Shown: positions 1 through 41,413 of the stretch, in pieces
Numbering within the stretch: position 1 is the stretch's first letter
Layout: each line of letters starts with the position of its first letter
Virus record (IMG/VR): IMGVR_UViG_2541047940_000004
Coordinates: 1 to 41,413 of that record
From: a virus
Lineage: Duplodnaviria > Heunggongvirae > Uroviricota > Caudoviricetes
Direction: 5' to 3' (one strand)
DNA length: 41,413 bases
Program-made: the position numbers and the translations under genes
Notes under the pieces: model-generated
What the model was told of the DNA's origin: nothing
What the model saw: the letters and a program-made list of their open reading frames with translations, nothing else
Databases searched by the model: none

Positions 1-1158
1 ATGCTCACCGTTAAGCAGATTGAAGCAGCAAAGCCGAAAGAAAAACCATACCGCCTACTCGATGGTAATGGCCTGTACCTTTATGTCCCTGTGTCAGGGA
101 AAAAGGTATGGCAGCTTCGCTACAAGATTGACGGTAAGGAGAAAATCCTGACCGTAGGAAAATATCCGCTAATGACTTTGCAGGAGGCAAGAGATAAAGC
201 ATGGACCGCGAGGAAAGACATCTCGGTTGGCATCGATCCGGTAAAAGCGAAAAAGGCTTCGTCTAACAACAATTCCTTTAGTGCCATTTACAAGGAATGG
301 TACGAGCACAAGAAGCAAGTCTGGTCAGTAGGCTATGCAACTGAACTTGCCAAAATGTTTGATGACGACATTTTACCCATCATCGGCGGTCTTGAGATTC
401 AGGATATTGAGCCGATGCAACTGCTGGAAGTAATCCGCAGATTTGAAGATCGCGGTGCAATGGAGCGAGCCAACAAAGCCCGCAGAAGATGCGGCGAGGT
501 TTTCCGTTACGCTATTGTCACCGGCAGGGCTAAATATAACCCGGCACCTGACCTTGCTGACGCCATGAAGGGGTACCGCAAGAAGAACTTCCCGTTTCTT
601 CCTGCAGACCAGATCCCGGCATTCAATAAAGCACTGGCAACATTTTCAGGAAGTATCGTATCGCTCATTGCCACCAAGGTTTTACGCTACACTGCCCTAA
701 GAACGAAAGAGCTTCGTTCCATGCTATGGAAGAACGTCGATTTTGAAAACAGAATTATCACCATCGACGCCAATGTGATGAAGGGACGCAAAATTCATGT
801 GGTCCCGATGTCAGACCAGGTGGTTGAACTTCTCACTACGCTAAGCTCAATCACCAAACCAGTATCAGAGTTTGTTTTTGCCGGGCGCAACGATAAGAAG
901 AAGTCAATCTGCGAGAACGCGGTACTGCTTGTGATCAAACAAATCGGCTATGAAGGTCTGGAAAGCGGTCACGGATTCAGGCATGAATTCAGCACGATTA
1001 TGAACGAGCACGAATGGCCTGCTGACGCTATTGAAGTGCAACTGGCACATGCCAACGGCGGATCTGTGCGAGGGATTTACAACCATGCTCAGTATCTCGA
1101 TAAGCGCAGAGAAATGATGCAGTGGTGGGCGGACTGGCTTGATGAAAAGGTGGAGTGA
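1..1158 (+). CDS. int: Tyrosine integrase, P4-type (tRNA-site family)
   Basis: 385-aa ORF; N-terminal arm-binding-like region (KPYRLLDGNGLYLYV...WQLRY) and C-terminal catalytic motifs (HGFRHEF ... RGIYNHAQY); sits at prophage end. Confidence 0.85.
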   Translation: MLTVKQIEAAKPKEKPYRLLDGNGLYLYVPVSGKKVWQLRYKIDGKEKILTVGKYPLMTLQEARDKAWTARKDISVGIDPVKAKKASSNNNSFSAIYKEWYEHKKQVWSVGYATELAKMFDDDILPIIGGLEIQDIEPMQLLEVIRRFEDRGAMERANKARRRCGEVFRYAIVTGRAKYNPAPDLADAMKGYRKKNFPFLPADQIPAFNKALATFSGSIVSLIATKVLRYTALRTKELRSMLWKNVDFENRIITIDANVMKGRKIHVVPMSDQVVELLTTLSSITKPVSEFVFAGRNDKKKSICENAVLLVIKQIGYEGLESGHGFRHEFSTIMNEHEWPADAIEVQLAHANGGSVRGIYNHAQYLDKRREMMQWWADWLDEKVE

Positions 1159-1183
1159 TCCACCTTAACCACTATCGGATAGT

Positions 1184-1215
1184 ACAAAGCCTTGCAATCC
1201 AGTGCAAAGCTTTGT
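1184..1215. terminator. Imperfect 13-bp hairpin between convergent int and tailspike genes
   Basis: acaaagccttgca / tgcaaagctttgt arms with 6-nt loop, one mismatch; lies between two convergent stops; no clear T-run. Confidence 0.35.
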
Positions 1216-1294
1216 GTGTTTCAGTTCCCTCACAATCACTATAATGTTCATTACGGTAATCATAAAACTAATGTATAGTTACATATTGTTTTCT

Positions 1295-3469
1295 TCATTT
1301 CACCACCCAACCAGAATTCCAGCGACCTGATTCTTTGATGTAGAGTCTTCCATTTACGATATCTCGATACTCGCTTCCAGGTGTGGCTATTTGTACTCCT
1401 TCAGGATTTCCAGTGCCAGCAATTATACTGTAACTAACGTCTGTGGCTAAATTCCTAACAATGTTAGCAGGAGGGTAAACGTTATCTGCAACAATAATAT
1501 TTGAGCAACTTGCTGTTACATCTACAAAAAACTCATTGCTTATCGAGTTGTGATAACAGTTGTTACTAATCACACCATTTTTAGCAGATGAATCAATACC
1601 TATAACTGCGTCTCCAGCTACAGATTCAAATGAATTTGATGTCACAGTGAATCCGTGGCATTCGCAGTTAATATGGACAGCTCTTCTTCCGTTCATTGCT
1701 GTATTACCTACAATTGATATGTTTCTACTTAACAAAGTTCCTTTGTATTCGCCATCATCCTCAAATATATAGAATATCGCCTTAGCCGTATCAACTTTAT
1801 TGTTGCTTGCAATCACATTAGCAATGTAATTCCCTCTAAGGAATATCCCATTACATGAATCGACTGTGTTTCCAGTGATGGAAACTCCGTCAACCCATCT
1901 CATATCAAGAATGGAGCCATCACAGGACTCAAAATTATTTCCTGATATCCTCCAGTCTCTGTGAAATATTCTACTACCTTCCAATCCGCTCTCAATAAAT
2001 GTTGGTGTAAGGCATGATATCACAGAATTTCCAGTGCAATTTTTAAATGTATTATGATGTATACACACATCTCTTGATGTTTCCCGAAGAGTTGTGCTTA
2101 CTTTCCTCCCGGTAAATATTATTGCTGGATTAGTGAAATTTATAAATGTGTTTGAACCAATGTCAACATTTTCCCACCTAGAAAAGCCACGAATGCCAGA
2201 ATAAGAATTACCATCAAAAGTACAATGGTGGATTTTTATATCAATAACTGGCTGCGCTCCATCTGTTGAACCGTGATTCCCTACGCCAACAGCCCATGAC
2301 GGTAGAGATTCTGACGGTCCAAAATAACAACCAGACACTTTAATGCTAGCGATATTATCATTGCTGGACAATGGTGTTTCAATCTGAATAGCATCTGAAA
2401 AACCTCTGTTACCTGCCCAATCCATAAACCCCATAAAACGGCAGTTTTCAATATTAACATTTCTCACGCGAGACAAGTCTATAGCATGCGCCCCTGAAAC
2501 ATTAAGGAATGTGCAATCCCGAAATATAATCCCATTAGTAAAAACAAATTCAAATATACTGGCTTGGTTTTTGTATATATTGCCATTGTTATTAAAAACA
2601 CCACCAAATACAGATATATTATTACCACATTCGACTTCAGATGTGTATATGCAAGCAAATGTATTTACACCTGTGTCTGAATTATCAAAAGCACGAATAA
2701 TAGTTGCACCTCGTAGATGTAAACTTGTGTTTGAGTATATCATTATTTTTTTTGTTATTTTTATAAGCCATTCACTACGAAAAGTTAAATTCAAACATCC
2801 GTTTATCTTTGCGATATTTAAAGCATTCTGTAAGGCATCGCTATCGTCGCTTACACCATCACCTGTAACCCCAAACCATGACGGTGAAACCTCATTCCCG
2901 TAAACCCTCTTCCACCTTCTACCGTTAAAACCTACAAGAATTGTTCCGTCATTATCTTCTGATGTCGTATCTGTTGGGTCAGCATAGAACACCCCATCAC
3001 CGCCATCGAACAAATTATTTCTTCCATAACAGATTATTTTGTCATTTGTGCCATTATATGAACGTATGTCTGTATAATTACCACCTCCTAAATACGATAC
3101 CCCGTCAATCTGATTTAGTTTCTGCTGAAACATGTCTGGATCATACTTCAGCACATTAGGAAAATAGAATTGCTGCGCTCCATACGCATCATATACAGCC
3201 ATAGAATGGCCTTGCACGGTTACGAATTTGGCAATCTGTCCGTTATATACCGGATATCCAGCAGCGTTAATGATGATTGGTTGCGAAACAGGGATGTGAG
3301 AACCGTCTTCGTTCTCCACATAAACCTGAATCTGGTTTTCAGGATTTACCGGGTCAGTGTCAATTTTACCGATATAAATTTTGCCATTAGCTACGGCTTT
3401 AAAAGAACGCGCCATAGTGAAAAGTTGCGAAGGCATCGATACGATCACATTGGCTGTAATGTCTGTCAT
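1295..3469 (-). CDS. Tailspike protein: P22-type head-binding N-terminal domain plus beta-helix receptor-binding domain
   Basis: 724 aa; N-terminus MTDITANV...[37 protein letters not shown] matches the P22/Sf6-family tailspike head-binding domain from memory; remainder is Asn/Gly/Ser-rich repetitive and AT-rich, consistent with a beta-helix. Confidence 0.9.
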
Positions 3470-3526
3470 TTAATTTTCTCCAGATACAAGGAATCGCCGA
3501 AGCATGGCTACGGTGAATTTTAGGCA

Positions 3527-3550
3527 TAAAAAAACCCAGCCTAAGCTGGG
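3527..3550 (-). terminator. Rho-independent terminator downstream of ant
   Basis: Minus strand reads CCCAGC-ttag-GCTGGG followed by a 7-8 nt T-run, immediately after the ant stop. Confidence 0.55.
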
Positions 3551-3569
3551 TCGTTGCGTTGGTTATCTG

Positions 3570-4538
3570 TCAGTAGTTATGTACTGAAGGAGGTAATTCT
3601 TTATTCTTAAGTCTTATCCATGCGGAAAGATTCGTTGGTCCGTCTGGCTCATTGATATCAACATCTCGTGTGTGGTTGATTAAAACGTCTCTCGCCATTC
3701 CGATAACATACGAGAATTCATGACCGTAGTCGTAGCATCTGCCGGAATAGTTCGATTGAATTTGTTTCAGCGCCGGATACAATTCGCGGAATAATGCCTG
3801 TGAGCGGTTGGCATAATCCCATAACCATACAAGGCTGTTTGCTTCTTTTGCAGAAAGCTCGTTTGCTTTCTTCTCTTGTTTGCCGATTAACTCGCCTTCA
3901 AGCACTACCCTGTGGATGTACTCTACGGCTTGCGGTATCTGAGATGCATCAAGCTCTTCAATACTTTCCACATTGAAACGCTGATGAATCATTGCATAAG
4001 CTTCTGGGTACATTAGATGCTTTTTGCTGACTAGCATATTTACAGCATCACGAAGCGGAGTCCTGTCATCAACAGATGTTTTCTTACGTGCATTTTCTGC
4101 CTTTCCCTTTGTCCAGTAGTCATGCAGTACAGTAAAGCATTCTTCCTGGTACTGAATCAGTTTATCACGGATGTCAGCACGAACTTTCTCAGGGTTGATG
4201 CTGATCAGCCATCCATTTAACTTCTTCAAAGGAAGGCATAGTAGCTTACGAAGCTTCCCATCAGCGGCAACCATGTTCATATGAACACAGTTGAATTTGC
4301 TAATCTGCTTCATGAGTTTTGTTTGCTGCGTTGACCAGCTCATTCCAAGGTTTTCAACGATTGGCTTCATCGCAACATATGCAACTCCGGCAGCCATGGC
4401 GGTGATAATTTGCTGACCGTTGAATGGTACATAAGAGGTGTTCACTGCTTCTAAAATTGCTATACTATTCATGTTGGTTTTTCTCCACGGATTTACTGAC
4501 AACCGAAGCCCTGACTGTTCCCGCAGTTGGGGCTTCAC
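3570..4538 (-). CDS. ant: Antirepressor Ant
   Basis: Position downstream of arc in the immI operon; ORF start at 4538 overlaps the stop of the upstream ORF (ATGA); alternative start at 4472 (MNSIAIL..., preceded by GGAG) gives 300 aa, the size I recall for P22 Ant. Confidence 0.8.
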
Positions 4539-4756
4539 TGTTTTTGTAAGTCACTGTAGTTATAAAGCCACTGACCACTCATTCTTGCTTTGATTGACTC
4601 TACTGAATCACGGCAAGGAATGATTCCACCTGACATCATTCTGATCTCCGTAAATTCACCGCTCCTTATCGACTCAATGCCATTAACGTTAACTAAAGAT
4701 TTACCTCTACCAAGTGCATTCTCATAGCCAATCTCATCAACCTCAATAAACCTCAT
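4535..4756 (-). CDS. Hypothetical 73-aa protein inserted between arc and ant
   Basis: ORF with ATGA overlap to the arc stop and to the ant alternative start; AGGGG-type RBS upstream; no P22 counterpart at this position as far as I recall. Confidence 0.5.
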
Positions 4757-4911
4757 ACCGTTATCCCCTCTCTCTTCAGGCTGTCCATCACTCGCTTATA
4801 AATCTCAGAGTTAACAGATCGCCCGTTCTCTTCAGCTACCTTGCGCACCAAATCCAATACTTCTTTAGGCCACCGCAAATTGAACTGCGGCATTTTGCTC
4901 ATTCCTTTCAT
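4753..4911 (-). CDS. arc: Arc repressor
   Basis: MKGMSKMPQFNLRWPKEVLDLVRKVAEENGRSVNSEIYKRVMDSL... matches P22 Arc from memory; true start at internal Met of the 73-aa track ORF (4753-4974). Confidence 0.9.
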   Translation of the reverse strand: MKGMSKMPQFNLRWPKEVLDLVRKVAEENGRSVNSEIYKRVMDSLKREGITV

Positions 4912-4927
4912 ATTTACCTCACAATAT

Positions 4928-4944
4928 AGGTCCACGGTGGACCT
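4928..4944. promoter_or_regulatory. Mnt operator (Omnt)
   Basis: Exact 17-bp palindrome AGGTCCACGGTGGACCT between divergent mnt and arc. Confidence 0.75.
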
Positions 4945-4953
4945 ATTGAGAAT

Positions 4954-4974
4954 ATAGTAGAGTGCTTCTATCAT
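4954..4974. promoter_or_regulatory. Arc operator (Oarc)
   Basis: 21-bp ATAGTAGAGTGCTTCTATCAT, the reverse complement of the P22 arc operator as I recall it. Confidence 0.75.
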
Positions 4975-5001
4975 GTCAATACACTAACTTGGGGTGATGG
5001 C

Positions 5002-5256
5002 ATGGCTAGAGACGATCCGCACTTTAACTTCCGTATGCCTTTGGAAGTAAGAGAAAAATTGAAATTAAGAGCAGAGGCTAACGGAAGGTCAATGAACTCT
5101 GAGTTATTACAAATCGTTCAGGATGCTCTCTCAAAGCCATCATCAATTGTAGGCTATCGAGACGAAGCTGAGCGAGTCGCGGATGAGCAATCTGACGTTG
5201 TTAAGAAGATGGTCTTTGAAACGCTGAAAAATATTTATAGCAAAAGTAAGTTATAG
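5002..5256 (+). CDS. mnt: Mnt repressor
   Basis: 84 aa MARDDPHFNFRMPLEVREKLKLRAEANGRSMNSELLQIVQDAL... matches P22 Mnt from memory; divergent from arc. Confidence 0.9.
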   Translation: MARDDPHFNFRMPLEVREKLKLRAEANGRSMNSELLQIVQDALSKPSSIVGYRDEAERVADEQSDVVKKMVFETLKNIYSKSKL

Positions 5257-5305
5257 GCTTATGACGTACAGTTAACCATATCGATATTGGCTCGCGTGAT
5301 GACAA

Positions 5306-6025
5306 ATGAAAAAAAGCAATGGACTCACATTAAAACTTGACGGAACCACCCCAGGCCAGCTGTCAATGGCTAAGTTGGTCAAGTATATGTCTGCTCTCGT
5401 AGATCTATACGGTTCTGCAGATTCTGTTCACTTCGACTGTGTAAGTGAAGGATCGGCTGACTTAAATGCATGGGTCGATAATGATATTTGTTATAACGCT
5501 GTCATAGCAAGGGCCTCTCTCTCAGCCAAAGAGAAATCACCCGCGTATCAAAAAATTGTTAATTTACTGGAACATGATGGTTTTTCAGCGAAACTACTCG
5601 GACGAAACCACTCAACCATTATCGCATTCCCGCGAGTAAAAAAGGAGCCAATCCCTTTACTCATAACAAAAACGTCAGAAGTTCAAGGAAGGCTATACAG
5701 TGTTGGCGGAAAAGACAACTCAATACCTGTGCGTATTGAGGGAGCCAACGGTGAAACATTCAAGTGCGAGGCAACCCCTGATTTGGCGGCAGCTCTTGGG
5801 TCCCATCTATTCAAATATATTAGGGTTAAAGGAGATGGGTGCTGGGAAAAAAAGAACAACAAATGGGAGCTAAAGAAACTAAAAATAACTTCATTTGTAT
5901 TGCTCAAAAAATCATCACTCAAGGATGCTATTAATGCTATCAAGCAAGTTCCTGGAGATCAGTGGTCCGAGGAACGCGATGTTGATTCAATCCTTAGGAC
6001 TCTGAGGAAGATAAATTGCGAGTAA
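5306..6025 (+). CDS. Hypothetical 239-aa protein, upstream partner of PIN-like gene
   Basis: Long ORF immediately after mnt; AT-rich by eye; stop overlaps the start of the next gene; no domain recognised by eye. Confidence 0.7.
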   Translation: MKKSNGLTLKLDGTTPGQLSMAKLVKYMSALVDLYGSADSVHFDCVSEGSADLNAWVDNDICYNAVIARASLSAKEKSPAYQKIVNLLEHDGFSAKLLGRNHSTIIAFPRVKKEPIPLLITKTSEVQGRLYSVGGKDNSIPVRIEGANGETFKCEATPDLAAALGSHLFKYIRVKGDGCWEKKNNKWELKKLKITSFVLLKKSSLKDAINAIKQVPGDQWSEERDVDSILRTLRKINCE

Positions 6026-6564
6026 TTTTAGATACCAATATTCTGGTATACCTACTATCAGATATAGAACACGATTATAGATTATCTGACCCTATACTTG
6101 GTTCTGAGATTCCAGATGCCAAAAGAAGAGCAGAAGCTCTTGTTGATCGAATAGATAACAAGAACGGGACAATCATCGTTCCAACTCCTGTATTGGCGGA
6201 GTTTTTAGTTGGAATCCATAAAGATTACCAACAAGAAAAACTGAATGTTATCAAATCGTTATCGTGCTTCGAGACTGTATCATTTGATGAGTTGGCTGCT
6301 ATTGAATGCGCATCGATACCAACATTAAAAGAATTAAGGAAAATTAGCACAGAAGGTACAGCAAATAAAATTAAGTTTGACAGACAAATAATAGCAATTG
6401 CAAGAGCAATTAATGCTGACGAGGTATGGACTCATGATAAGGGAGTGTTTGAGCGTTGCAAAAGTCTCAATATTCCTGTGTTCACATTATCATCAATAGA
6501 ACCAATTCCGGTTCAAAGTCTCATGGAGTTCTTACACGATTCAGACGATCAGAGATTACACTAA
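6016..6564 (+). CDS. PIN-domain-like nuclease (VapC-like fold), 182 aa
   Basis: TTG start overlapping upstream stop (TTGCGAGTAA); motifs ILDTNIL (D6), PVLAEF (E62), FDRQIIAIARA (D122), WTHD (D141) fit the PIN acidic quartet. Confidence 0.7.
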   Translation: MRVILDTNILVYLLSDIEHDYRLSDPILGSEIPDAKRRAEALVDRIDNKNGTIIVPTPVLAEFLVGIHKDYQQEKLNVIKSLSCFETVSFDELAAIECASIPTLKELRKISTEGTANKIKFDRQIIAIARAINADEVWTHDKGVFERCKSLNIPVFTLSSIEPIPVQSLMEFLHDSDDQRLH

Positions 6565-6692
6565 AATATAATTTTTATGCATCCGTGATAATTACATCCG
6601 TCACGGATACATAAAGCTATAGCCAAAAGTGGACAAACCTTTATCTCACTCCAAACCATCTGGTATCCTACTCAAAACTAAGGAGGTTGGTG

Positions 6693-6880
6693 TGAAGAAA
6701 AAATTTGTAAACGTTGCAAAGTGCGCAATTTTTATATTTTTTATGACCTTTTACGGATTTAGTGCCGGAGAAGGTTTCGATCGTGATGCCAATGCATTCA
6801 GTTTCTTTTGTCTGTCTATAGTGGTCATAATTGTATGGGTGGAATTAAAGCAAACATTGTTTCATGTGCTAGGGAAATAA
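6693..6880 (+). CDS. Small predicted membrane protein (about 62 aa, two hydrophobic segments)
   Basis: GTG start 5 nt after a strong AAGGAGG; VKKKFVNVAKCAIFIFFMTFYGF...FFCLSIVVIIVWV; track ORF 6629-6880 is the same frame extended. Confidence 0.5.
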
Positions 6881-6897
6881 CCATCCATGGCATTTAG

Positions 6898-8739
6898 TCA
6901 CTGCTGTGTTGCCTCAGTGGCAAGCAGCGGTCTGATGGCATTTGCAGCGTTACTCAACGCTCTTTCATAGGCTGGCGTTCCAGCTTTAGTGTTTGCCAGA
7001 CGTAAGAGCGCATTCCTTGCTGCTTTGGATTCATACAAGCGCATCATTGCACCGAAACCAGCCTCAAGCCCCATTGATACGCCAAGAGTCGCAGTTGCGC
7101 CAATCGTCCTTATCCTGTTGGCTTGCGATTGCCCCGTCTGAGTTACTACATTTGCGGTGTCTGACCTTGCTGTTTGCTGCAGAACTTCATGAAGAGCATC
7201 AAGTTCTTTCATGTGCTTTCCAGAAAAAATAGTGTTGTAAATTTCACCGCCTGACTGAGATTTCAGCTTATTAACTTCAGTGATGAACTTGGCTGGAGAG
7301 TCACCGGCCTTTTCCGCTATTTTGCTGACGTAAGCTGCACGCATAGCATCTTTCCCTTTATCATCCAGTGCGCTCCAGATTCGTTTCACGTCAGATGGTT
7401 TTCTGCTTAATACAACGGTATTTATAAGTTCAGGACTGGCTTCACTGCTTGCCTTGTTGAGCTTGTTAGCAATGTTTTTATTAAGCACCTTATTATAAAC
7501 GTTTGCATAATCGGAATTTGCTTTAAGGTATTTTGCTGCGTCTGATGCACCGAGGTTTTTAGCAACTGCGTTACGAAGGTCTTTTGACATTGCATTCTCT
7601 ACCATATTGGTAGCTGCTTTTGCCTGGTTGGGGAAGACCATAGCATCTCCCTGAACATTAGATCTAAATGCTGTTCTGTGCTGACGCAAGAGATCAAACG
7701 TAACATCCAAATCAGTTGCAGGGTTTGCTAATTCTTCACGTAGGTTACGCAAGGATGTAAGCAGGCTTTGATTGGCAGACGTCCCAAGCCGTTCCTGTCT
7801 TGCGATCGCTGTATTCAGAGCATTCATGGTATTTGTGGTATCAACTGCGGCATTACCCATTTTATTGGTGACGTCATTGATAACAGCGCCAGCGGCATCC
7901 TTCCGCCCCCTTAACGTGGTGGTCAGAGATTTCACCACATCATCAGGGTTGTACTCACCAAAACGGTCAAAATAATTGCTTACCAGCTTACTACGCGTTG
8001 CATATTGCTCCGCTCGCTTTGAGCCTGTCCCGAGCAAAGCCCCCTCGGCATCCTGAGTAAGGCCGCGAGTGAAAGCATTTTTCGGCGGGATAACATCAGA
8101 TGTCATTGGTGTCACGCCCATCGATTCTGATGTGGCAATTTTCTTCGCCACTTCTGGCGCAATATCACCTTTTATAGCCGTTATTCCACGCCCTATTCCC
8201 TTTGCTGCTGCGGAAAGAACACCCTGAGCGGCAAGGTTAACTCCGGCATTTTTAGCTGCATTTTGTGCGAAATCGCCTTTCTGATTTGCGGCCTCTGCCA
8301 GTGATCCAATAGCCATGCTTCCTGCCGTTCCAACTCCTGGAACTAAATACCCGCCAATTGTTTCTCCAGCTTGCGCATAAGGGTCTGTTGGTCGATCTAC
8401 TGGACGATAGACATCGTCCAAAACCTTGGGGCCACCAAGCCCCTGGCTGATTGCATTAATCAGACTTGCGCCACCCTGCAATACGTCAAATGGTATGTTT
8501 ACCAGACCACGACCAGCCTGCTCTGCAATTTGCCCTGCACTTTGACCATCTGTGAGCCAATCGCCAGCTTGTTGCATCAATGATGGTTCTTCACGTGCTG
8601 GTTCATTATTGGCCTGATTAACTGTTTGTTGCTGAACAGCCTGACCAGCAAAATACTCATCAATGGCGGTGCCAATATCTTCCGTGCTCGTACCATCAGG
8701 GAAGGTAAATGTCTTACCGTTTGCAGTTACTTTCATCAT
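6898..8739 (-). CDS. Ejection (injection) protein, P22 gp16-like
   Basis: 613 aa; last gene of the P22-order virion operon; size and position match gp16; Ala/Gly-rich. Confidence 0.75.
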
Positions 8740-23265: not shown

Positions 23266-23341
23266 TGGTGCTGGTTAACGGACTTGAACCGCTACCCATT
23301 CGCTTACAAGGCGACCGCTCTACCATTGGAGCTAAACCAGC
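23266..23341 (-). tRNA. Phage-encoded tRNA-like gene, anticodon UGU (Thr)
   Basis: Hand-folded cloverleaf: 7-bp acceptor GCTGGTT/AACCAGC, D-stem GCTC/GAGC, anticodon loop CUUGUAA (U33, A37), T-arm AGCGG-TTCAAGT-CCGTT, discriminator A plus CCA; one G-A mismatch at the base of the anticodon stem. Confidence 0.6.
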
Positions 23342-23346
23342 ATATT

Positions 23347-23421
23347 TGGCGGGACAGCGTGGACTCGAACCACGATAAGAAGGTTAACAGCCTTCCGTAA
23401 TGACCTTTATACGACTGACCC
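23347..23421 (-). tRNA. Phage-encoded tRNA-like gene, anticodon GUU (Asn)
   Basis: Hand-folded: acceptor GGGTCAG/CTGTCCC (one U-U mismatch), anticodon arm GAAGG-CUGUUAA-CCTTC, T-arm CGTGG-TTCGAGT-CCACG, CCA end; D-stem imperfect. Confidence 0.5.
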
Positions 23422-38314: not shown

Positions 38315-39030
38315 GCGAAATTAATTACCAGGCACTGCGTGAAAAGGCAGAGAAAGCAACGTGTGGTGTGTGGTCGCTAGAATATGGAGAGGGCCGATTT
38401 GATGGTGATGATGCACTAATTCATCGCGAGGCTGCTGGATATATTCCCATTTGCAGAATTGAAGGAGCGCATCCAGAAAGCGGTTTCGATGAAGATTTCC
38501 AAATGGAACAGCAGGCCAATGCTGAATTCATCGCCGCAGCCAATCCGGCTACCGTCTTGGCGCTGCTGGGCGAGCTGGAAACAGCAAAAAAGCGCATAGC
38601 AGAACTGGAAGCCGAACCTGTAAGCCAAGCTTACAACTTGCCAGAATTAATCGAAGGCATGGAAGTTTCCATTGATGTAAGTACTTGTGATGCTGATTTA
38701 GGTAATCGCTATTTCGGCACCGTCACCGAGGCGTTAGAACTTGATACTGCCAAGAATGGTTACATCCTCCTGGTTCAGGACGCAGAGCCAAACTTCGATG
38801 TAAATGGCAACTCTCCGGTAACTCCGGATGGTTGGATAAGCTGTAGTGATCGAATGCCGGATACCAAAACAGCCGTTCTTGTTGCCGTGGAGTTTGACAG
38901 GAAAGGTGACTGGCGAATGAAATGGGCGACTTACATCCCGGGTCATCCTGACGCTAATGATGGGTGGATAATTCCTGGTGCGTCGTGGAAACCGTCACAC
39001 TGGATGCCGCTACCAGAGCCTCCACTTTGA
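38311..39030 (+). CDS. Ead/Ea22-like protein with C-terminal DUF551-like domain
   Basis: GTG start 6 nt after AAAGGAGG; C-terminus ...WISCSDRMPD...SHWMPLPEPP typical of DUF551 as recalled. Confidence 0.6.
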   Translation: MSEINYQALREKAEKATCGVWSLEYGEGRFDGDDALIHREAAGYIPICRIEGAHPESGFDEDFQMEQQANAEFIAAANPATVLALLGELETAKKRIAELEAEPVSQAYNLPELIEGMEVSIDVSTCDADLGNRYFGTVTEALELDTAKNGYILLVQDAEPNFDVNGNSPVTPDGWISCSDRMPDTKTAVLVAVEFDRKGDWRMKWATYIPGHPDANDGWIIPGASWKPSHWMPLPEPPL

Positions 39031-39126
39031 AAGCGAAGCTTATACATATCTTTTACATCAGCAATCTATTGTTAATCTCCAATCAATGTTACGTTGTCAT
39101 CTCACTCATGCTTTGGAGGTAGTGAT

Positions 39127-39306
39127 ATGTCTTGTCCAAAATGCGGTTCTGGAAATATTGCAAAAGAAAAAACAATGCGTGGATGGTCTGATGATTATGT
39201 GTGCTGCGATTGCGGATACAACTACTCTAAAGACGCATTTGGAGAGCGTGGTAAAAACGAGTTTGTCAAAATTAATAAAGAACGCGAAGGCAACGAAAAA
39301 AGCTAA
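39127..39306 (+). CDS. Small zinc-ribbon protein (59 aa)
   Basis: GGAGG 7 nt upstream; MSCPKCGSGN...CCDCGYNY with two CxxC pairs. Confidence 0.5.
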   Translation: MSCPKCGSGNIAKEKTMRGWSDDYVCCDCGYNYSKDAFGERGKNEFVKINKEREGNEKS

Positions 39307-39371
39307 TTTATTTATTCATATATGAAAACAATGTAACCAATATTCGAATTGAAGAACTGAAAGAACACCAA

Positions 39372-39392
39372 GCCGCCTGATGGCGGTTTTTT
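39372..39392 (+). terminator. Rho-independent terminator
   Basis: CCGCC-tgat-GGCGG followed by TTTTTT. Confidence 0.55.
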
Positions 39393-39437
39393 ATTGCCTG
39401 ATTTGCAGGTTCGATTCCCTATTCGGAGATAGCACTC

Positions 39438-39638
39438 ATGCAACACGAACTACAACCTGATTCACTGGTTGATTTGAAATTCATCATGGCCGATACTGGC
39501 TTCGGTAAAACCTTCATCTACGACCGGATTAAGTCCGGCGACCTGCCAAAAGCCAAAGTTATCCACGGGCGAGCAAGATGGTTATATCGTGACCATTGTG
39601 AATTCAAAAATAAGCTCTTAAGCCGCGCCAATGGGTAA
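39438..39638 (+). CDS. AlpA-family excisionase / transcriptional regulator (Xis-like)
   Basis: 66 aa; small HTH protein directly beside the att core at the prophage end. Confidence 0.65.
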   Translation: MQHELQPDSLVDLKFIMADTGFGKTFIYDRIKSGDLPKAKVIHGRARWLYRDHCEFKNKLLSRANG

Positions 39639-39711
39639 AATAGCGGGTAAAATATTTTTCACATCTAAAAAACACCATTCCAATCAATCCCCTGCCGCGT
39701 CAAGTAGATGT

Positions 39712-39726
39712 CTGCAGGGGACACCA
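39712..39726 (+). repeat. attR core: 15-nt copy of the argW tRNA 3' end (CTGCAGGGGACACCA)
   Basis: Matches the 3' terminus of E. coli argW as recalled; upstream bases do not continue the tRNA, so this is a partial copy left by integration. Confidence 0.7.
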
Positions 39727-40165
39727 GATACCCTTCAAACGATATCTACCTTCACCCCGTAAAAGATAAGTTTGGCAGCACATTTGCCCTATCTACTCAT
39801 TTTTCCTGCAACAGGTTGAAATCTCAACACGGTCAGAAAACGCTGATGACTAAACAGCCCTGGGCTGGGCGATGTAACCATCACACACAATCCTGATCGC
39901 GAAATATGGCGTGACTTGATACTTCACTCCACAATGCTTTCCTTGATGAATTCGCAGGCCCGTGATACACGGGACAGGTCGCTGAATTACGACAATGCCC
40001 TGGAAATCAGCGAGCCGTGTATCCGGAGTACATTTGAGCGACTGTACCAGAACATGAATGAGGCGTTTGGATTAGGCGATTATTAGCAGGGCTAAGCATT
40101 TTGGTATTATTATTTTCCGGTTGAGGGATATAGAGCTATCGACAACAACCGGAAAAAGTTTACGT

Positions 40166-41413
40166 TTATATTGCTGAAGGTACTGGCGTTTCCATCACTA
40201 TTTGCTCACGTTTTTTACTCAGGAAGAAAATGCCAAATAGCAACATCAGGCAGACAATACCCGAAATTGCGAAAAAAACCGTCTGGTAGCCTGCGTGGTC
40301 AAAGAGTATCCCAGTCGGCGTTGAAAGCAGCACAATCCCCAACGAACTGGCAATTTGAAAACCAATCAGAAAGATCGTCGACGACAGGCGCTTATCAAAA
40401 TTTGCCACGCTGTATTTGAAGACGGATATGACACAAAGTGGAACCTCAATGGCATGTAACAGCTTCACTAATGAAATAATCCAGGGGTTAACGAATAGCG
40501 CGCAGGAAAGGATACGCAACGCCATAATCACAACACCGATAAGTAATGCATTTTTTGGCCCTACCCGATTCACAAAGAAAGGAATAATCGCCATGCACAG
40601 CGCTTCGAGTACCACCTGGAATGAGTTGAGATAACCATACAGGCGCGTTCCTACATCGTGGGATTCGAATAAACCTGCATAAAAGACAGGAAAGAGTTGT
40701 TGATCAAAAATGTTATAGAAAGACCACGTCCCCACAATAAATATGACGAAAACCCAGAAGTTTCGATCCTTGAAAACTGCGATAAAATCCTCTTTTTTTA
40801 CCCCTCCCACATCCGCCGCTACGCACTGGTGTTCCTGCTCTTTAAAACGCATGTTGATCATCATAAATACAGCGCCAAATAGAGAGACCAACCAGAAGTT
40901 GATATGGGGACTGATACTAAAAAATATGCCAGCAAAGAATGCGCCAATAGCATAGCCAAAAGATCCCCAGGCGCGCGCTGTTCCATATTCGAAATGAAAA
41001 TTTCGCGCCATTTTTTCGGTGAAGCTGTCAAGCAAACCGCATCCCGCCAGATACCCCAGACCAAAAAAGAGCGCCCCCAGAATTAAACCTACAGAAAAAT
41101 TGCTTTGCAGTAACGGTTCATAAACGTAAATCATAAACGGTCCGGTCAAGACCAAGATGAAACTCATACACCAGATGAGCGGTTTCTTCAGACCGAGTTT
41201 ATCCTGAACGATGCCGTAGAACATCATAAATAGAATGCTGGTAAACTGGTTGACCGAATAAAGTGTACCTAATTCCGTCCCTGTCAACCCTAGATGTCCT
41301 TTCAGCCAAATAGCGTATAATGACCACCACAGCGACCAGGAAATAAAAAAGAGAAATGAGTAACTGGATGCAAAACGATAGTACGCATTTCTGAATGGAA
41401 TATTCAGTGCCAT
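40166..41413 (-). CDS. cscB: LacY-family oligosaccharide:H+ symporter, CscB-like sucrose permease (host gene)
   Basis: 415 aa with about 12 hydrophobic segments; matches E. coli CscB as recalled (MALNIPFRNAYYRFASSYSFLFF...); the csc locus is known to sit at argW. Confidence 0.8.
   Translation of the reverse strand: MALNIPFRNAYYRFASSYSFLFFISWSLWWSLYAIWLKGHLGLTGTELGTLYSVNQFTSILFMMFYGIVQDKLGLKKPLIWCMSFILVLTGPFMIYVYEPLLQSNFSVGLILGALFFGLGYLAGCGLLDSFTEKMARNFHFEYGTARAWGSFGYAIGAFFAGIFFSISPHINFWLVSLFGAVFMMINMRFKEQEHQCVAADVGGVKKEDFIAVFKDRNFWVFVIFIVGTWSFYNIFDQQLFPVFYAGLFESHDVGTRLYGYLNSFQVVLEALCMAIIPFFVNRVGPKNALLIGVVIMALRILSCALFVNPWIISLVKLLHAIEVPLCVISVFKYSVANFDKRLSSTIFLIGFQIASSLGIVLLSTPTGILFDHAGYQTVFFAISGIVCLMLLFGIFFLSKKREQIVMETPVPSAI

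Follow-up and report, generated by a model that had tools for sequence, protein, structure and literature searches.

The right junction of a P22-like prophage in argW and its IntS/TorI recombination module

The recombination module common to KplE1, HK620, Sf6 and CUS-3 (Panis et al. 2007, 2010, 2012) is the closest described counterpart of the locus presented here. In the E. coli K-12 prophage KplE1 (CPS-53), which occupies the same target gene, argW, an IntS-type integrase gene lies beside attL in the orientation of the tRNA gene and torI lies beside attR, as is the case here. TorI is an experimentally characterised excisionase, needed for excisive recombination both in vitro and in vivo, and the recombination directionality factors (RDFs) of KplE1/HK620/Sf6-type modules are reported in the literature to be 100% identical. 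KplE1 excises in vivo, a reaction for which TorI, IntS and IHF are all needed (Panis et al.). Promoter activity overlapping attL has been published for KplE1, whose intS gene is read from its own promoter at this position, under repression by IntS as well as by TorI, the latter of which binds five sites in attL. With the transcription of int and RDF uncoupled in this way, excision of KplE1 is controlled mainly via RDF production, and the arrangement has been termed 'a new paradigm for integrase gene regulation'.

The same module is found in several complete phages. The HK620 and Sf6 records give the order hkaC or gp18, attP core, int, i.e. the circular order xis, attP, int that also applies here. 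CUS-3, phiv205-1 and Kapi1, all P22-like phages of E. coli, carry the same torI-att module and insert at argW but differ from the present element in their tailspike and accessory genes. Kapi1 has been mapped experimentally to the 3′ end of argW, its attP being located between int and xis, which come to lie at opposite ends of the prophage.

Phage lambda offers a more distant comparison. Like the present element, it encodes a tyrosine integrase with an arm-binding domain and a small winged-helix RDF, and like KplE1-type modules it uses arm-type and core-type sites and requires IHF. Yet, in lambda the xis and int genes are neighbours on the same side of attP and share a transcript, whereas KplE1-type modules have attP between the two genes and uncouple their transcription. 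The integration site of lambda, moreover, is not in a tRNA gene.

Here, we describe an element whose right end falls within the window, by which we mean the whole analysed stretch of 41,413 nucleotides. We consider it highly probable (about 0.96) that this end is the right junction of a P22-like prophage integrated in argW by an IntS/TorI recombination module. The features on which the following sections draw are:

1–1158, plus strand: gene of an intS-type tyrosine integrase, 385 aa (Pfam PF13356, PF22022 and PF00589)
39370–39396, plus strand: intrinsic-terminator-like hairpin followed by a T run (putative function)
39394–39431, plus strand: putative torI upstream control region (HK620 annotation and box conservation)
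39438–39638, plus strand: torI, recombination directionality factor (excisionase), 66 aa (66/66 residues against PDB 1Z4H)
39639–39711, plus strand: P arm, from the torI stop codon to the core (HK620 homology and repeat search)
39712–39726, plus strand: attR core, a 15-nt copy of the argW 3′ end, CTGCAGGGGACACCA (sequence match)
39727–40165, plus strand: host DNA to the right of attR, including a DUF4942 gene fragment (matches the sequence following argW in prophage-free strains)
40166–41413, minus strand: cscB, the host gene of a sucrose MFS transporter (ORF and host-genome match)

The two prophage junctions

Two independent comparisons, one made from the phage side and one from the host side, place the boundary between prophage and chromosome at 39726/39727. 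Alignments with the attP regions of HK620 and Sf6, which show 98.6% and 98.2% identity over the matched stretches, respectively, both stop exactly at 39726. In turn, many E. coli chromosomes match 39727–41413 at 100% identity, and in the prophage-free strain E. coli F11 the sequence from 39727 onward starts with the first base after argW, which constitutes the empty attB site. Directly at this boundary lies the 15-mer that an earlier note on this DNA had read as a copy of the argW 3′ end and as the attR core, situated before host DNA and cscB. All of these assignments hold: CTGCAGGGGACACCA equals the final 15 nt of the annotated 75-nt tRNA-Arg gene argW of F11 (L003, positions 2926–3000), the homologous 16 bp are annotated as 'attP core' in the HK620 record, and host homology begins at the very next base.

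Identity between attP and attB in this strain amounts to exactly the 15 nt of CTGCAGGGGACACCA, as both neighbouring bases differ: on the 5′ side, the phage has T where argW has C, and on the 3′ side it has T where the host has G. For KplE1, which has the same core, CTGCAGGGGACACCA(T), the published K-12 repeat is 16 nt long (CTGCAGGGGACACCAT), and the Kapi1 paper gives a repeat of 17 bp. These lengths of 15, 16 and 17 nt reflect differences in the host flank—here the csc sucrose cluster—rather than in mechanism. To judge from these sequences, 39712–39726 is the crossover identity segment common to attL, attP and attB.

The surroundings of the junction are widespread, with the region around torI and attR (39300–40165) being matched in 4160 of 5426 complete E. 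coli genomes. An Rfam scan of 38500–40300 at a permissive threshold returned chance-level matches only (STnc130 with an E-value of 0.72, all others far below their gathering scores) and thus gave no sign of a hidden RNA gene in attR. Between attR and cscB, at 39865–40086, lies a fragment of a DUF4942 gene (Pfam match at 39916–40086, also annotated in RefSeq), which looks like debris of an older island that had used the same tRNA hotspot beside the csc sucrose cluster. Separately, many IMG/VR prophage contigs, among them L019, L020 and L023, were found to end exactly 3 nt past the torI coding match, meaning that their predicted boundary cuts off both the P arm and the attR core.

At the opposite end, the window begins with the ATG of the integrase gene, and attL was therefore read from an identical public contig instead of from the window. 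The complete E. coli genomes in RefSeq contained no record spanning window positions 1–3500, and suitable contigs were chosen by exact protein matches to window proteins, namely the 385-aa integrase and the tailspike. One of these, L198 (a Logan assembly of SRR958757 with an identical tailspike), shows 0 mismatches to window positions 1–7469 and continues upstream into an intact argW, which occupies −236 to −162 when counted from window position 1. The distance of 161 bp from the end of argW to the int ATG is the same in L198 and in 8 further contigs with an identical integrase, in all 8 of which the upstream order is fadL-mlaA-yfdC-argW; an ST131 lysogen has the same argW-int geometry. This upholds the expectation, likewise voiced in the earlier note, that intact argW and attL lie just upstream of position 1 and that argW there ends in the same core. 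ARAGORN, for its part, recognised only the phage-borne tRNA-Thr and tRNA-Asn genes in the window and no argW, which fits an attL outside of it. The lysogen thus keeps an intact argW gene, as the sequence of these contigs shows.

The spacer of 161 bp in L198 is the P′ arm of the phage. It starts with TTTATCAGTTCGC, as do the corresponding parts of the HK620 and Sf6 attP sites, and contains the pentamers GTTCG, GTCCG and GATCG as well as GGGTAAAA/TTTTACCC repeats, all of these being scored as sequence presence. Added to the 39726 bp on the window side, the spacer brings the phage genome between the two junctions to 39,887 bp (~39.9 kb). The integrase, which is read from attL into the prophage and hence, as previously noted, inward from the far left end, comprises Arm-DNA-bind_3 (arm-binding), Phage_int_M (central) and Phage_integrase (catalytic) domains according to Pfam. 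RefSeq names its homologues 'prophage integrase IntS', and its counterparts are HK620 int and Sf6 gp16; the oac gene that adjoins int in Sf6 is absent here.

With both junctions at hand, the possibility can be weighed that the 15-mer is a chance match or an unrelated tRNA-like fragment and that the real prophage boundary lies elsewhere. A match of 15 nt is short by itself, and the window lacks a second copy: CTGCAGGGGACACCA occurs in it once, 0.06 matches being expected with 2 mismatches allowed. However, the match falls exactly where homology switches from phage to host, its position coincides with the annotated attP core of HK620, and the second copy forms the end of argW in L198, the contig that matches the leftmost 7.5 kb of the window without a difference. 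The attP alignment, the F11 argW match and the attL copy in L198 together rule out a chance fragment, leaving this alternative with a negligible probability.

TorI, the P arm and the predicted route of excision

The gene preceding the junction encodes a 66-aa protein that is identical at 66/66 positions to PDB 1Z4H, whose chain is named 'Tor inhibition protein', i.e. TorI of the K-12 prophage KplE1. The homologous gene is called torI in RefSeq and is the same gene as HK620 hkaC and Sf6 gp18; the DNA comprising torI and the P arm of attP is 98.2–98.6% identical to that of these two phages, whose records mark the attP core at the corresponding place. The description of the gene as Xis-like is thereby borne out. 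Its additional label, AlpA, fared less well. It would make the protein an AlpA-family transcriptional regulator that activates a cryptic integrase and is not itself an excisionase, a view to which one Erwinia phage record adds by citing COG3311 AlpA for a homologue. Against this stands a Pfam search at E ≤ 0.01, in which the Phage_AlpA profile (PF05930) did not match the torI ORF and the sole match was HTH_17, at a sub-threshold 16.9 bits against a cutoff of 27. NCBIfam likewise holds no model that matches TorI. The protein, moreover, is identical to one published as required for excisive recombination, and the published data on the TorI sites already speak against a role confined to regulation. 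We therefore regard a purely AlpA-like role as very improbable and refer to the gene as torI in the following.

A scan of viral contigs with TorI as the query yielded 80 loci, all of them 100% identical. As such a set is uninformative with regard to conservation, Erwinia and Klebsiella homologues were used as queries instead. The torI stop codon lies 73 nt before the attR core, a spacing that is invariant in homologues with ~85% protein identity. The core had been described as following directly after the Xis-like gene, which is right as to its being downstream but slightly loose in view of these 73 nt.

The P arm filling this interval contains several conserved elements, and the segment is kept in the Erwinia and Klebsiella phages. 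Two direct GGGTAAAATA repeats, at 39633–39642 and 39645–39654, overlap the torI stop codon, and the homologous 23 bp are annotated as an attP repeat in HK620. The arm-type IntS sites of KplE1 share a TAAA motif, and by homology the GGGTAAAATA repeats are predicted to be arm-type sites of IntS. In addition, TCCCCTGC at 39688–39695 in the P arm forms an inverted repeat with GCAGGGGA at 39714–39721 inside the core, with 18 nt between the arms. The P-arm copy of TCCCCTGC is invariant in HK620 and in the Erwinia and Klebsiella phages, the overall identity of the latter two being 75–80%, and the inverted repeat may constitute an extra candidate core-type site for the integrase.

Taken as a set, all defining features of the KplE1/HK620/Sf6-type module that can be assessed from sequence were found here: the argW core at both ends, a TorI-family RDF beside attR, attP between RDF and int, an IntS-type integrase at attL in the orientation of the tRNA gene, and the arm-type and TorI site motifs, which are the same as in KplE1. 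In the phage circle, attP lies between torI and int, since the attR of the window and the attL of L198 are colinear with the attP of HK620 and Sf6. Integration consequently puts the two genes at opposite ends of the prophage, each beside one junction, with int at 1–1158 and torI at 39438–39638, and thus apart from one another rather than grouped as int and xis are in lambda. The earlier note had already deduced the circular order xis, att core, int, which the HK620 and Sf6 annotations confirm. It had also contrasted this order with that of lambda; the contrast is real but not new, as it has been published for KplE1, HK620, Sf6, CUS-3 and Kapi1.

The four junction sequences indicate how the element would have entered the chromosome. 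An IntS-type integrase would have swapped strands inside the 15-bp identity between attP and the end of argW, and recombination at this segment would regenerate an intact argW at attL, ~161 bp upstream of int, and leave the 15-nt argW copy at attR. The subsequent steps draw on the work on KplE1, homology being the guide to protein binding and to the excision of this prophage, while the junction, the gene identities and attL were read directly. In the lysogen, a promoter that overlaps attL would drive weak transcription of int, held down by the integrase itself, and torI would be silent. Once made, TorI would occupy the GTTCG-type sites that lie within the P′ arm on the attL side. Excision would then be driven by TorI jointly with IHF and with IntS, the last of these attached to arm-type GGGTAAAA sites of both arms; at the same time, TorI would repress int. 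By analogy, we infer that this prophage excises as KplE1 does.

An argW-like box upstream of torI

The DNA ahead of torI contains a second fragment of argW. A predicted terminator at 39370–39396 probably ends the upstream early-left genes just ahead of the torI control region. Just before this terminator, at 39128–39306 (plus strand), lies a 59-aa ORF with two CxxC pairs, whose homologue is named 'Eag protein' in RefSeq and which has no match in Pfam. The control region itself opens with a TTGC-N6-TTGC box at 39394–39407, for which the HK620 record gives a cII site and integration promoter. A scan of 39250–39800 found no sigma-70 promoter, so that the promoter of torI cannot be placed from consensus alone.

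Overlapping this box, the 16 nt of TTGCAGGTTCGATTCC at 39403–39418 reproduce without mismatch the T-arm stretch of argW that, in the tRNA gene, runs right up to the core. The final 30 nt of argW are accordingly present in the phage as two separate parts, with 293 nt, comprising torI and the P arm, between them. The 16-nt copy largely coincides in position with a conserved box, CAGGTTCGATTCCC, at 39406–39419, ~30 nt upstream of torI. The box, GTTCGATT(C/T)CC in its conserved form, belongs to the 16-nt argW copy in the phages of E. coli. In several diverged lineages, an inner box, (C)AGGTTCGATT(C/T)CC, is located 27–36 nt upstream of the torI start within differing flanks; Erwinia Midgardsormr38-like phages have it in tandem duplicate, and in one lineage it takes the form of a complete T-arm, CAGGTTCGATTCCTG. 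Klebsiella RCIP0114-type phages lack it; in these, torI is directly adjoined by an ORF on its upstream side. The TTGC-N6-TTGC cII-type box, by contrast, is not conserved across these diverged lineages. A chance origin of the 16-nt copy was considered and appears unlikely given that the box recurs in diverged lineages.

As for the role of the box, three readings are conceivable: an operator bound by TorI, an element of a promoter, or a leftover of a formerly longer attP that stemmed from the tRNA gene. A combination of these, in which a relic of an argW-derived attP once extending over ~30 nt has been kept as a functional operator, is a speculative proposal that we would rate as rather doubtful. 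Within the operator reading, the most likely form is a candidate TorI site through which TorI would autoregulate the torI promoter, a version favoured by the presence in the box of GTTCG, a pentamer of the published TorI sites. The box is mentioned nowhere in the literature that was examined on the KplE1/HK620/Sf6-type module.

The prophage as a whole and the meaning of the module

The element delimited by the two junctions is apparently a complete, mosaic, P22-like prophage of ~39.9 kb. Its nearest phages are phiv205-1, CUS-3 and Kapi1, which cover 56–65% of the query at ~96% identity. PHROG comparison recognised the tailspike, a gp16-type DNA-transfer protein, coat, portal and large terminase, along with a DnaB-like helicase, an O-like initiator, repressor, RecT and endolysin, all at full length, and on the identical contig Pfam matched Head_binding and Phage_P22_gp16, i.e. 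virion and ejection genes of the P22 type. The element differs from HK620 and Sf6 in its tailspike, immunity and early regions, as one would expect among mosaic phages.

It might still be argued that the element has decayed into a cryptic remnant comparable to KplE1 of K-12, retaining only the recombination module without being a functional phage. In keeping with this, its TorI is identical to that of KplE1, and the element is known here from sequence alone. KplE1, however, is a defective remnant of 10.2 kb that lacks a repressor, as opposed to the ~39.9 kb of a full-length prophage here; 10/10 tested ORFs with structural, lysis, replication, repressor and recombination functions are full length and match their families; and phiv205-1, CUS-3 and Kapi1, with whose genomes it is colinear, are active phages. 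A remnant is thus improbable, and an apparently complete prophage is the reading that we retain.

Two further loci of the prophage were noted in passing. The tRNA-Thr(TGT) and tRNA-Asn(GTT) genes are found 5 nt apart at 23266–23421 (minus strand), upstream of the lysis genes. A 182-aa PIN-domain gene and an overlapping gene of ~219–239 aa occupy 5306–6564 (plus strand; 906–2104 in L198), flanked by the Arc/Mnt immunity region on one side and the gene of the gp16 ejection protein on the other; this pair may represent an accessory toxin or defence cassette.

In essence, the finding is a known recombination module that has been correctly read, and its arrangement was known before. The locus adds one more instance to a module that was worked out between 2001 and 2012 and is present in thousands of E. 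coli genomes. For annotation, it fixes the right prophage boundary at 39726 and gives the recombination genes their names, intS-type integrase and torI. One detail of possible further interest is the tRNA-like box ahead of torI, the promoter of this gene having been described as uncharacterised in the KplE1 paper (Panis et al.). If the operator reading of the box were true, a third regulatory loop would be added to the IntS/TorI module, and a fragment of a tRNA gene would have been co-opted as a regulatory site.
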